NCBI GenBank assembly: GCA_964016885.1
Contig: OZ024755.1
Coordinates: 12,090,001 to 12,154,000 of the forward strand
Length of the DNA: 64,000 nucleotides
Reading direction: 5' to 3'
Source: Eledone cirrhosa
Taxonomy: Eukaryota
Shown: piece after piece, positions 124-16,080 of the stretch
How the letters are laid out: the number at the start of each line of letters is the position of its first letter
Numbering within the stretch: position 1 is the first letter of the stretch
Program-made: the position numbers and the translations under genes
The notes under the pieces: generated by a model
What the model was told of the DNA's origin: nothing
The model's database searches: none
The model's input: only the letters and a program-made list of their open reading frames with translations

Positions 124-268
124 AGCAAATGGATATTTAATTTGTTGGTAATTCAACAAATATATTTATAACAGATTTATAACAAATATATTTAAAACGT
201 ATCCGGGTGAAACTTGAACCGTTAAGGTCTCATTCCTGAATATGTCAATATTTATAAAACAAACTTTG

Positions 269-329
269 TATTTTATCTGATGAGTGCGTACCAAAGTTTT
301 GGTACCCTTGAAATATATATAATAGAATA
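269..329 (+). ncRNA. Minimal type-I hammerhead ribozyme (palindromic stem III) in a (TA)n-embedded insert
   Basis: Stem I TATTTTAT(269-276)/ATAGAATA(322-329); core CTGATGA 277-283; stem II GTACCAAA/TTTGGTAC; GAAA 310-313; palindromic stem III ATATATAT; predicted cleavage after A321. Confidence 0.7.
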
Positions 330-524
330 AATATGGTTTTATAAATATAGTTTCCATTTATTAATATATGACGTACATGTGTAGTCGTACACACACACAC
401 ATATACCACACACACACACATACCACACACACACACACACACACACACACACACACACACACACACACATACATATATATATATATATATATATATATAT
501 ATATATATATATATATATATATAT

Positions 525-805
525 ATATTGTTATACTTTGGAAGGGTCATGTTGCCAATAAGAAACACACGCACCAGTTGCTTTCACTTCAATTTATTAT
601 AATAAATTTATAAATTTAGGAACCAACCAACCAACCGAAAATTTATAAATTCCTAAATTTATAAATTTATTATAATAAATTGAAGTGAAAGCAACTGGTG
701 CGTGTGTTTCTTATTGGCAACATGACCCTCCCAAAGTATAACAATATCGGTTTCAACACACGTTTTCAGATAAAGAATCTTGCTAAACAAATTCAGAAAC
801 GAAAT
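525..805. repeat. Foldback insert in (TA)n, Penelope-like inverted fragment
   Basis: 98-bp arms 525-622 and 650-747 with one mismatch. A related rearranged fragment lies at 16295-16350. Confidence 0.8.
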
Positions 806-1161
806 ATATATATATATATATATATATATATAGCTGCGATGCATGTGTGTGGTTATAAACATAGTTTTGTTGCAGATGGAATTAGTATTTCTATTTGATA
901 TATTCTCATAGCACATCTGACAAACAGTTTCGAAGATATACTTCATCTTCTAGTTTATGCTTATTGGGAGAAGATGCAGATGGAAAATATCTATATAACA
1001 GGGCCTTGGTGTTTTTCTGAATTTAGTGAGGGGATTCGTCGCAGTAGTGGTGATGCTGTCTGTGTTGTTGTTGTTGTTAATGACCGATAGCCATTTGCGC
1101 TAATAGCCAGCTCGGCAAAAATAATAAAAATCATAAATAAAATCATTAATATATATATATA

Positions 1162-1361
1162 TAGGAAAAAGTATGACCCCGACGGCAGAGCTCAAGCCAT
1201 ATCGACAGCTATTTCTCGACTGAGTCCAGAAATAGCCGTCGAAACGGCTTGAGCTCTGCCGTCGGGGTCATACTTTTTCCTAGTTCCCACTCTACTACCC
1301 TAAGTATTGAGTACACTGGTGCGTTATGGTCCATCTGGTTCCTTACCACAATTCCTTTGTT
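1162..1361. repeat. Foldback insert in (TA)n
   Basis: Inverted arms 1162-1216 and 1228-1282 with 3 mismatches. The 1287-1361 extension recurs inverted at 53629-53704. Confidence 0.8.
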
Positions 1362-11744: not shown

Positions 11745-12130
11745 CCACATACACACAACCGCACACAAACACACAACCACAGCCACAACCACACACATAC
11801 ACACACACATACAAACAGAGATGCACACAACCACACACAAACACACACATACACAGCCACAACCACACACATACACACACATACAAACAGAGATGCACAC
11901 AACCACACACAAATATACACATACACAGCCACAACCACACACATACACACACATACAAACAGAGATGCACACAACCACACACAAACACACACATACACAG
12001 CCACAACCACACACATACACACACATACAAACAGAGATGCACACAACCACACACAAATATACACATACACAGCCACAACCACACACATACAAACAGAGAT
12101 GCACACAACCACACACAAATATACACACAC
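11745..12130. repeat. 66-bp CA-rich minisatellite, ~5 units
   Basis: Repeated ACACATACAAACAGAGATGCACACAACCACACACAAA; 22-aa periodicity in the ORF track. Confidence 0.9.
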
Positions 12131-13986
12131 AAAGACTGCACATTTGTTTGTGGAAACATGCATGTTTCACTTACATAAGAATGGAACAACCTACATCACT
12201 GCAACACCTACATACTTTACTGTGCTAAGCTCATGCACATTGCTCTCTCTCTCTCTCTCTCTCTCTCTGAATAAAAATATATATTGCCGGGTGCACACTG
12301 CTTGCATCGCACACTACCATACTTAGCAAGTATTTGTGCACCACAATACATTCATACCCATATAGTTAACTATGTAACAGAGTGTCGAATAGCATAGCAA
12401 TGGATATTTAAACAATCTAACTATTTATATTCACACACACATACACACACATACACCCACATACACACACATACACACACATACACACACATACACACAC
12501 ACACTCATATATATGTGCAGAATAAGCAAACAGTCACACAGTCACGCTTAAATGTCTGTACCCACACGTATGATCAGTCAATGACCTATATATATATATG
12601 TGCATACATATGCAAGTATGTGTGCATATGTGTGTGTATGTATATTATCTATGTATATGTGTGCATGTAAGTGTATATATATATATATATATATATATAT
12701 ATATATATATATATATATCATATATATATATACACATAGGGAGGGGGAGAGAAATGAATACATATTTGCCTGTGTGTTTTGTTTAGTGTTTATGTGCATC
12801 TATGTGTGAGAGAGAGAGAGAGAGAGAGAGAGAGAGAGATAGATAGATAGAGAGAGAGAGAGAGAGAGTCGAGTTATCTACACGACAACTGACTGCATAC
12901 AAATGCACATCATAAATACATCCCACATACACAGCACAGTCACACACATACACACATAGGCGCACAAAAGCGCAGACATGTCAAAGTGCTGGGATTTCAG
13001 TCTGTGTGATGCAATCTAAGTTGTGTAAAAGTAAATTTGATAGTTTGAGTACATAGAACTGCACAGATATGTAGCGTTAGTGTTGCAGTAGTACTGCACG
13101 TCACTTGAAAATGAACTGCTAAAACAAATACAAACATATATATGCAACATGAGGAAAAAGGTTGGGTGGATTGGATGGGTAGGTGGGTGTGGAAAGAGGT
13201 ATGCTCTACAGTAAGAGAGGGTGTGTGTGTTTTTTTAGACGAAGAGAAAGATAGACGAAGAGAAAGATAGACGAAGAGAAAGATAGACGAAGAGAATGAT
13301 AGAGAGTGAGAAGAAAGTATAGAAAGAGAGAAAAAGAGAAACAGTAAGCGATATATTTAAAGGGTGAGAAAAAAAGGAAAATATATGTATCCTATTTAGT
13401 TTAGGTAGATTGTATCTCTGCATATCGTAAAAAGTGACTAAAAGGGTTAGTGAAAGGAAGGGCATCTGGTTGTAAAGCATTGCCTTAAAAAGTCTCATTT
13501 ACCCCATACCAGTAGTTACACTGTCTGAATTTAGCCAGTGGGGAAGAAACTTTTGTCAACTAACACTATGAAAACTAACCTTTATGAGTGTTTAAGTGAT
13601 GGAAAGCAATGGAGAGAACTTTCTCTCTCCCCCATATATACATATGTACACACACACACACACACACACACACACACACACACACACACACACACATATA
13701 TGGCTAATAAAATAATGTGCTTTCTTTCCTCTCAACACTTTTCCTTCTTTTCTTTTCTTTTTTACTTTCAACTGTCTTCCTTTTTCTATCTCTGAAACAT
13801 CCTCTCTTTTCTATCTTCCAATGAAGCACTAGCATAGGAAACGTTGAGACTATATCCAGCTATAAAGAATGTATAAGCATGATAAGGTCATTCTGACCTG
13901 TCTGGTCAGTGACTGTGACAATCTGTCCAACTTATGCCAGCATGGAAAGCTGATGAAAAATACTACAATAATGATGTGTTAAACAA

Positions 13987-14376
13987 ATATACACTAATAC
14001 ATTGTATCATTCTCCAGGGTTTTTTCTTGTTAACTTTATATATATATATATATATAAAGTTAACAAGAAAAAACCCTGGAGAATGATACAACGTATTTGT
14101 GTATATTAGTGTATATTAGTGTATATATATATCTAATAATTCTAAGGACATGATTTATGATATATATATAATATATATATAATAGCTTTCACCTTATTTT
14201 TTTTTACTAAAGAAATTTTAGTCTGATAATGGGGTTTAGAACCCTCAGATAAATGGAAAAAGCTGAGTATTGATGTACATGTTCAATACTCATCTTTTTC
14301 CATTTATCTGAGGGTTCTAAACCCCATTATCAGACTAAAATTTCTTTAGTCAAAAAAAAATAAGGTGAAAGCTATT
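13987..14376. repeat. Two adjacent foldback palindromes
   Basis: 13987-14106 is centred on a (TA)n spacer; 14181-14376 has ~92-bp near-perfect arms. Confidence 0.85.
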
Positions 14377-15867
14377 CTATTTTCTAATTTCAAACCTGCT
14401 CACTGTTTCAAATATATATATATATATATATATATATATATATATACACAAAGACAATATATATATATATATATATATATATATATATATACAAAGACAA
14501 TATATATATATATATATACACACACACAGGGTATTATGTAACTTGTGGTTACTAGCGGTGACACTGGTCGAAGCAGTCAATGCTGTTACTGGGTTCATCT
14601 CTTGTTGGGTTGTGCTCCAGGTTTAGGCATCTGTAGTTTGCATATATATATATATATATATATATATATATATACAGGCAAGTGTATGAGTGTAAGTGAA
14701 TGCATCACATTATTTGTGAATTGCTCTGCATATGCAAGTGTTTGCGAGTGACCAAATGTAATATAGAGTGTAGGAAATGTAACACAATGTATAACAGGCA
14801 TATATATAAATATAAAGGAACAGATATATACTGATACACATATACATGTGTATCAGTATAGACAAATAGACAGCCAGATGAAGCAAGCAAGCTGAAACTT
14901 CGAAGTCACAGCCACTTTTCTATTTATAAAATAAATTTCTATACTCCTCCAACCGGTACTGAGTGTACATTCAGTTAATGTTTGAATGTATTAAATACTA
15001 TACCATTTTAAACATATTCTTGTATATATATATATATATATATATATATATATATATATATATATATATATATATATATATATATATGTATACAAACGAG
15101 CGAGAGCGAGAGAGAGAGAGAGTGGGTCATGAAAGTTAAAAAGACAAAAAAGTTTGGTGCAATTAAAAAGAGAGAAAGACACACACAAATAGACAGCCAG
15201 ACAGATTAATAGATAAATAGATAGATAGTCAGATAGAAATAGAGACACAAATAGTCATATATGTAGAGATTGATAGTCACATATATATATATATATATAT
15301 ATATATATATATGAGAGAGAGAGAGAGAGAGTTATATATATATAAAGATATATACAGAAAGAGAGTGATATAGATATATAGAGAAGTCAGATAGATAGAT
15401 AGATAAATTGTCAAACAGATAGATTGACAGACAGTCGGACAAATAAATATATATTGGTAGATAGATAGTCAGTCAGACAGATAGATAGAGAGAGAGAGAG
15501 AGAGAGAGAGAGAGGGAGAGAGAGAGAGAGCAAGATTAAAAGTAGCGATATGACTGTAAAAGAGAGAAAGGAAGAGACTGATAGAGAAAAAGAGAGAGAG
15601 TGTGAAAAAGATAGATAGAACAAAACAAAGGAAGAAACTGCCAGATAAATGAAACATGTGAATACATATATGAAAGAATATGCACTGACATATGTGCATA
15701 TTAACGCAACCAGTGCAGACTTACAGACAACAACGGGTGAGTTAAAACTCCATATATATATATATATATATATATATATATATATATATATATATATATA
15801 TATAAATGAGAGGTATAGAGATTGTTTTAGCGAGAAGCTAATAGTATTCTATAATATATATATATAT

Positions 15868-16080
15868 ATATATTTATTGTATAGAAGGAGCTTCTACAGG
15901 ACTAGTACTGTTTCATTCAGATGAAATCTTCAGGAAGCTGAGTGTCATATGAAGATTTCATCTGAATGAAACAGTACTAGTCCTGTAGAAGCTCCTTCTA
16001 TACAATAAATATATTTTACTCTGCCATGTATTGAGTACCTTACTTACTGTGGTTATCCCCGACTCAACCCGGGACCTACG
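15868..16080. repeat. Foldback insert in (TA)n carrying a hammerhead
   Basis: Arms ~15868-15932 and 15950-16014. Decayed relatives at 19366-19415 and 53848-53895. Confidence 0.85.
15889..15939 (-). ncRNA. Canonical type-I hammerhead ribozyme
   Basis: Minus strand reads AGCTTC-CTGAAGA-TTTCATCTGAAT-GAAA-CAG-tactagtc-CTG-TA-GAAGCT: complete CUGANGA/GAAA/UH core, stem I 6 bp, stem III 4 bp, short stem II. Confidence 0.78.

Follow-up and report, generated by a model that had tools for sequence, protein, structure and literature searches.

Type I hammerhead ribozymes have been described in the pseudo-LTRs (pLTRs) of metazoan Penelope-like elements (PLEs), where they occur in many unrelated families per genome, mostly in single, truncated elements with opposed pairs 100-700 bp apart, and where a palindromic stem III and a covariant U3:A8 core are seen (Cervera and De la Pena, 2014, PMC4209133). 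PLEs of the Neptune and Hydra clades, the latter including Hydra-1_Obim, encode a reverse transcriptase (RT) with a C-terminal GIY-YIG domain and clade-specific motifs, and they combine (TA)n targets, direct and inverted pLTRs, an optional tail and canonical hammerheads (Craig et al., 2021, PMC8557442); the Naiads are reported to be without canonical hammerheads, eight of them being marked HHR_half_core (PMC8557442). A further arrangement, the non-circularly permuted type SGC, was found in searches of metagenomes, metatranscriptomes and RefSeq and cleaves (Eckert et al., 2023, PMC10085705). Here we describe a stretch of 64,000 nucleotides from Eledone cirrhosa (assembly GCA_964016885.1, contig OZ024755.1, positions 12,090,001 to 12,154,000 of the forward strand; hereafter the window), in which the features listed above for the type I, Neptune and Hydra elements recur. 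Taken as a whole, the analysis makes it probable that the window holds, in (TA)n, end pieces of about ten families, of which at least five are linked to protein-coding PLEs and one has a covarying fold predicted to be a non-circular hammerhead with a split core.

The window is AT-rich and filled with microsatellites, in a genome of 3.0 Gb. Every insert examined is a member of a repeat family, and the inserts are end pieces of about ten such families lying in (TA)n (lettered as in Table 1). A first look at the genome returned 1712 sequences for family a (124), 1633 for d (1398), 1122 for e (1782), 80 for f (1952), 2465 for g (7640), 2091 for h (15868), 1071 for i (43485) and 1969 for k (52155), all of which are candidates and not copy numbers. 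In 464 kb of unselected DNA, made up of the window and 40 neighbouring stretches, the ten families account for 99 sites of insertion. Of their 124 arms, 79 end no more than 25 nt from a TA run, as against 12% of random positions. The targeting of (TA)n that an earlier sequence-only reading of the window had proposed is thus borne out, as are the foldbacks with inverted truncated ends that it had described; the tail is found on a single arm in families a, b, c, f and h. Foldback junctions vary among copies, and each foldback is therefore taken to be a separate event. The foldback with an inverted truncated arm and a one-sided tail, the (TA)n targets (PMC8557442, PMC3846280) and the U3:A8 core are already published. 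What differs from the elements in PMC8557442 is that the families are not the same and that the tails measure 45-100 nt here compared with 30-40 there.

A type I descriptor that tolerates one core change matched the window five times (2089-2126, 7744-7821, 15889-15939, 52174-52224 and 60146-60208, all on the minus strand); in 1128 local shuffles that kept dinucleotide composition it averaged 0.42 matches and never gave more than 3, so that the motifs do exceed shuffled sequence. The motif at 269-329(+), read directly from the sequence, has an 8-bp stem I, the core CUGAUGA and a palindromic stem III, and is absent from the descriptor matches because mismatches open its stem II. Core boxes, three stems and a NUH site are present in families a, f, g, h and k; the window copies of families e and i fall short of the full type I architecture. 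Of the complete architectures claimed earlier, those at 269, 2089, 7744, 15889 and 52174 therefore stand, while the window copy at 43548 has lost G5, and the palindromic stem III thought to be frequent was found in several families. An Rfam scan of the window, which that reading had suggested as a check, gave no hammerhead family among the matches listed (150 of 199), only chance miRNA-type matches. Minimum-energy folds mostly did not produce the hammerhead shape and were not used as evidence. The match at 60146-60208 has a U3:A8-like core and may be a chance occurrence.

As the sequence-only reading had argued from the differing stems, the families are independent: they are unrelated repeats, each with its own core. 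Among copies mostly chosen for likeness to the window copy, CUGAUGA is kept in 50/60 copies of family a and CUGAAGA in 34/39 of family h, and the core of family b is present in 12/12. U3:A8 is found in all 33 copies of family f and in 12 of 14 of family i. Family g has C4 (U4C) in 30/32 copies, and family k has A4 (U4A) in 37/40 and U17 in 71/73. The non-canonical changes at 2089, 7744 and 52174 are family-wide, and two Hydra-type families, g and k, are fixed at core position 4, for C and A respectively. In these fixed changes, and in the 5-bp stem III and U17 of family k, the window differs from the PLEs of PMC4209133. U4C has been noted for a viroid (PMC3088659), and no report of U4A was found in the literature consulted for hammerhead cores. 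In all 14 cores of family e, position 3 is G or A and position 9 is U; the segment at 1854-1881, which had been listed as a half motif, can be read as the 3' half of a type I motif and, with its family core degenerate throughout, is called a relic. The window copy of family b is truncated at a point downstream of its family's hammerhead. Family c, which had not been listed, has the whole motif at locus L069.

A link to Penelope elements had been suggested, and at least five families (a, b, f, g and k) are tied to protein-coding PLEs. In locus L111, direct repeats of family f lie 4979 nt apart and flank an open frame of 938 aa with RVT_1 and, at its C terminus, a GIY-YIG domain, so that hammerhead-bearing pLTRs, with their optional tail, bracket the ORF; the family adjoins the same ORF in L112, L116, L119, L120 and L122. 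The protein has a DKG motif and a CX4CxxC linker finger (criterion CX2-5CxxC) and is on these grounds Neptune-type. Direct repeats of family g flank a broken ORF with RWK, DKT, YRDD, CxCX5C, CxxC and CxH motifs (L128-L130), and family k lies downstream of one Hydra-type endonuclease, 94-100% identical between L115, L212 and L247, with CxCX5C and CxxC (L115). For family a, pieces of a Hydra-type endonuclease with CxCX5C and CxH lie 1.2 kb upstream in one long, broken copy (L266/L285), and family b follows the end of a PLE ORF in L100/L252 and L176. A hammerhead pLTR downstream of the ORF with (TA)n, the arrangement expected of Hydra, was thus seen at three loci for g, three for k and one for a. 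The clade names rest on the protein motifs, and no similarity was detected between the Hydra-type and Neptune-type protein pieces. Since members of the families of 2089, 7744, 52174, 269 and 525 elsewhere in the genome either run on into RT/endonuclease ORFs or come after them, their inserts are best read as fragments of autonomous elements, and the hammerheads at 269, 2089, 7744 and 52174 as the pLTR ends of Neptune- or Hydra-type elements. The idea that the window holds non-autonomous elements accordingly fails for most inserts and survives for the ~520-nt unit of family d and the ~460-nt composite at 52151-52612.

Two points count against extending this reading to every family. The ORF link of family a is a single locus, and none was found for h, c, e or i among the few long copies walked (about 16 ten-kb stretches), although 15889 (h) and 43548 (i) have the same anatomy as the ORF-linked families and a weak protein match (32%) lies 3 kb downstream of family c in L240. 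The GIY-YIG search scored the best 150 of 10597 candidates, and parents of other families may be unseen. Locus L127 contains a 6.5-kb tandem duplication in which nested h-like and b inserts accompany a piece of a Neptune-type ORF. The pLTRs at L111 7150-7700(-), L126 2900-3900(-) and L100 near 900 carry what we take to be TATA and CCAAT boxes, and we presume that family f has an E2F-like site and that a YY1-like motif lies where the 5' ends of family b cluster.

Family d differs from all of these. The segment at 1710-1734, described earlier as half of a type I motif, instead contains the last block of a permuted four-helix fold that the sequence-only reading had missed (Table 1). From 5' to 3' the order is a stem II strand and a bridging strand, a cleavage block, a GAAA block and a CUGAUGA block (S-G-C). 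The strand that precedes GAAA pairs not with the nucleotides following CUGAUGA but with a strand further upstream; stem II would therefore be supplied from upstream. The whole is a four-helix pseudoknot in which the fourth helix joins the far ends of stems I and II, and a G-A-rich bulge, which we take to be a probable kink-turn, lies between helix III and the bridging helix and would help to join the two stems. Attempts to fit family d to a type I, II or III hammerhead gave no suitable stem II or cleavage site.

Covariation is seen in each of the four helices, both inside the three families and between them. In 16 copies of family d from several subfamilies, 94% of cells are paired and in 11 of 23 pairs both bases change, compared with 28-49% pairing in slid registers; 0/500 shuffles did as well, a count that expresses consistency and not probability, the helices having been derived from the same, related copies. 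When two further families are added (25 copies, chosen by eye as full-length from 91), 85% of cells are paired and both bases change in 17 of 23 pairs (128 cells), with slides at 34-46%. The bridging helix by itself has 4/6 such pairs in the 16 copies and 5/6 in the 25. The A15.1-U16.1 pair is invariant in 25/25 copies, and position 17 is never G. A four-helix descriptor, run over 1.58 Mb of loci, picked out 18 distinct sites, of which 17 belong to family d; it matched 4 of 1866 window shuffles. A simpler pattern of the two boxes and their spacing, with the main d subfamily excluded, gave 131 sites compared with 1 in the control, and the 90 examined include, besides d variants, at least two families that are old and differ in their helix letters. 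We conclude that 1647-1716 is, as a prediction from this modelled fold, a hammerhead ribozyme with an unusual strand order.

The closest known wiring is that of type SGC (PMC10085705), which shares with family d the S-G-C block order, a 3-nt linker between stems I and II, the conserved core and a fourth helix linking the far ends of these stems. In type SGC, block C is assumed to be unbreakable, whereas in family d the stem II and bridging strands lie 5' of block S, so that A9 is not joined to stem II. Because CUGAnGA is separated from the stem II strand, family d would work like SGC without being a member, and it belongs to an animal retroelement whose cleavage is predicted. No description of this wiring with a split core was found in the literature, in a search that left out subscription papers and the supplement of PMC10085705.

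By eye, the same layout can be made out in two Naiads, Naiad_Obim and Naiad_Ovul, of which the second carries the published label HHR_half_core. Their 3' ends show the four helices, spacing and core boxes of family d with other helix letters and, unlike most d copies, have a canonical G-C pair next to GAAA; (TA)n targets and a tail are also common to Naiads and family d (PMC8557442). The family d unit has an optional tail, inverted copies and no long frame, and tandem units of 504, 519 and 521 nt occur in three loci, as dimers only. The motif would likely cut tandem read-through RNA into units of ~520 nt, which would then be copied in trans by a Naiad-type enzyme; family d would at most be a non-autonomous dependant of a Naiad. 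On balance we lean towards a wider reading, in which Naiads and their ORF-less dependants carry a new S-G-C topology whose core is opened between A9 and stem II, a remote 5' strand provides stem II, and the bridging helix and presumed kink-turn form a cage. On that reading the motif would cleave in vivo, process tandem transcripts, be used by at least three families in the genome and represent the ribozyme thought to be missing from Naiads. Several results stand against the Naiad connection. The layout is seen by eye in 2/6 Naiad 3' ends and was not visible in those of Naiad_Esco, Naiad_Adux, Naiad_Omin and Naiad-1_Skow. Upstream of the 22 d copies and 30 pattern sites examined, not one Naiad ORF turned up, no direct genome-wide search having been made, and no ORF with an N-terminal GIY-YIG and C-terminal RT was present in the family d unit or upstream of it in the loci examined. 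The exact Naiad_Obim motif has 0 matches in the genome.

We infer the way in which the ordinary pieces form from the anatomy of the inserts and from an anole Penelope protein, which makes cuts in both strands where the DNA is AT-rich and begins reverse transcription from two internal sites bracketing the tail (PMC11167929); cleavage by any of the motifs, and the dependence of family d on a Naiad enzyme, we likewise infer. The GIY-YIG nuclease of the element would cut both strands within a TA tract, reverse transcription would begin internally in the RNA, at either end of its tail, and the head-to-head joining of two short cDNAs would yield a foldback with the tail on one arm. Cleavage by the type I hammerheads would be weak and, for several of them, would take place in dimers formed via the palindromic stem III. 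If the template is the leader of a unit-length mRNA, the cDNA would run off at the transcription start. This is likely for f, h and i, the Neptune-like families, because their 5' ends accumulate some 30 nt downstream of a TATA box: they lie at -7..+5 in 23/33 incidental arms of family h (TATA at -35), at -43..-39 in 6/16 arms of f (TATA at -72) and at -55..-53 in 6/15 targeted arms of i (imperfect TATA at -85). TATA and initiator motifs in pLTRs (PMC3846280) and an internal promoter (PMC2377424) have been mentioned before. We regard run-off at the transcription start as about an even call.

A potential alternative, which concerns only how the short copies arise and not what the inserts are, is that the foldbacks result from early stalling at the 3' pLTR, antisense self-priming or recombination, with hairpins or microhomology setting the 5' ends; self-priming and recombination have been proposed for palindromic junctions and solo pLTRs (PMC3846280). 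Several observations lean that way and against run-off. Family a has a pyrimidine tract instead of a TATA box, family g shows plain 5' truncation that decays gradually, and the 5' ends of family c peak inside its long stem II. The family h peak coincides with a 4-nt palindrome, 12/21 junctions there being compatible with overlap at it, and the cap-derived extra G, a weak signal, is seen at only 25/70 junctions. However, the peaks in f, h and i follow the TATA box, at 29-32 nt, and not the hammerhead, which lies 6, 42 and 54 nt downstream of them. We therefore hold the stalling and self-priming explanation as a tentative one.

For family d, the question is whether the fold is a working ribozyme or a conserved RNA of another kind, for example a protein-binding element (kink-turn or box C/D-like) or a hammerhead relic kept as a recognition signal for the RT. 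Some features of the fold sit uneasily with the ribozyme. The pair next to GAAA is mismatched in most d copies, helix II is short (4 bp) and not joined to A9, and pair 24:52 is unpaired in 12/16 copies. That GAAA, AUGAU and CUGAUGA never vary in alignment A2 follows from how the pattern was built, and only 4/30 pattern sites passed a fixed-geometry test, the others being mostly truncated or decayed. We take CUGAUGA and AUGAU to resemble box C motifs. Among 86 copies, 5' ends are only about threefold denser at and just after the predicted cut than just upstream of it (11 within 2 nt of it, 17 at +3..+10 and 10 at -15..-3), which is suggestive only, and 36 copies extend intact through it to -30 or beyond. 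In addition, the anole Penelope inserts in vitro with no need of hammerhead cleavage (PMC11167929). Against a non-ribozyme role, both core boxes, the invariant A15.1-U16.1 pair and the non-G at position 17 are placed as a hammerhead requires, helices I and III abut the core boxes in three sequence-unrelated families, and the block order and bridging helix match those of type SGC, which cleaves (PMC10085705). We consider it unlikely, on this evidence, that the fold is not a ribozyme, and retain the prediction of a permuted hammerhead. Three copies of the motif (L360, L381 and L341) have short internal deletions that end at or beside the predicted cut.

Finally, the sequence-only reading had raised tandem retrozyme units. 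Non-LTR retrozymes (Cervera and de la Pena, 2020, PMC7229834; bioRxiv 10.64898/2026.07.22.740005) resemble family d in being ORF-less tandem units with a ribozyme-like motif, but they are repeats of 150-450 bp with a canonical type I hammerhead, whereas d forms dimers of 504-521 nt with a permuted motif and PLE tails. Two or more head-to-tail type I units of 150-450 bp were not found for families a, b, f, g, h, i, k or d, and in the loci examined no short head-to-tail array was seen for the first seven. That all inserts are dedicated non-autonomous elements or retrozymes spreading as small circular RNAs is very improbable: the very many short copies (99 sites in the 464 kb), the ORF-less dimers of family d, the fixed 5' end of the 52151-52612 composite in 12/19 copies and the argued origin of animal retrozymes from pLTRs (bioRxiv 10.64898/2026.07.22.740005) would suit it, but five families join ORFs, foldback junctions differ by copy so that there is no single short master, and same-strand spacings of a, b, f, g, h, i and k are absent, element-sized or those of separate insertions split by TA.

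Table 1. Inserts and predicted motifs in the window (positions from its first nucleotide).
Feature	Position	Strand	Description
Family a	124..364	+	inverted tail 124-197; direct pLTR arm 198-364; type I hammerhead 269-329
Family a, predicted cut	after 321	+	in type I hammerhead 269-329
Family b foldback	525..805	+	arms 525-622 and 650-747; tail 748-805
Family c foldback with tail	1162..1360	+	3' half only of a U3:A8 type I hammerhead
Family d	1398..1735	+	tail-less, 5'-truncated copy of an ORF-less ~520-nt unit
Predicted permuted split-core hammerhead	1647..1716	+	family d; cleavage triplet 1664-1666, predicted cut after 1666
Helix II	1647-1650/1678-1681	+	family d fold
Bridging helix	1652-1657/1697-1702	+	family d fold
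Helix III	1661-1665/1686-1690	+	family d fold
Helix I	1667-1673/1703-1709	+	family d fold
Core boxes	1683-1686, 1710-1716	+	GAAA and CUGAUGA, family d fold
Family e	1782..1888	-	3' half, type I hammerhead relic; degenerate family core
Family f	1952..2222	-	pLTR arm with tail (2153 to 1952); inverted arm 2154-2222; Neptune-type element
Family f hammerhead	2089-2126	-	U3:A8 core
Family g	7626..7890	-	3' end of Hydra-type element, 5'-truncated; hammerhead 7744-7821, U4C
Foldback in (TA)n	14177..14415	+	one-sided extension; no hammerhead core found by descriptor
Family h foldback	15868..16080	both	complete hammerhead 15889-15939 on the minus arm; plus arm 15950-16014; tail 16015-16080
Family i foldback	43485..43760	both	U3:A8 hammerhead 43548-43590(-), G5 lost
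Family k, second short fragment	43924..43970	-	
Composite ~460-nt unit	52151..52612	-	unrelated ~340-nt 5' module and family k pLTR end
Family k hammerhead	52174-52224	-	U4A, U17; inside composite 52151..52612

Of the remaining features, the composite shares its whole unit, with the same fixed 5' end, in those 12 of its 19 copies, and is apparently a chimera spread via a PLE end. Its ~340-nt module (52276-52612(-)), which we presume to resemble Helitron-derived sequence, has a fixed 5' end and also occurs alone at 35753-35933. Another foldback in (TA)n, at 13980-14113, gave no hammerhead core. A LINE 3' end with a zf-RVT domain lies at 49069-49809(+), and an open frame of 350 aa at 56396-57448(+) encodes a Tc1/mariner-type transposase (DDE_3, HTH_Tnp_Tc3_2). 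The segment at 45164-45847(+), without a match in the Pfam search, we take to be like an RTE-type LINE end.

The ordinary part of these findings is textbook Penelope biology in a repeat-rich genome. Within it, the fixed U4 changes of families g and k offer a test of how much activity PLE hammerheads need, and thousands of short copies with 5' ends that track the TATA box are a natural read-out of internal priming by a PLE RT. The predicted permuted motif breaks the published assumption that CUGAnGA is inseparable from its stem II strand, and because the two are split, it escapes current descriptors and Rfam models. With it, an animal genome would contain a hammerhead of the non-circular kind. 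If true, it supplies the ribozyme reported missing from the Naiad group; whether Naiads are truly without a hammerhead becomes directly testable, which bears on whether PLEs need one at all.

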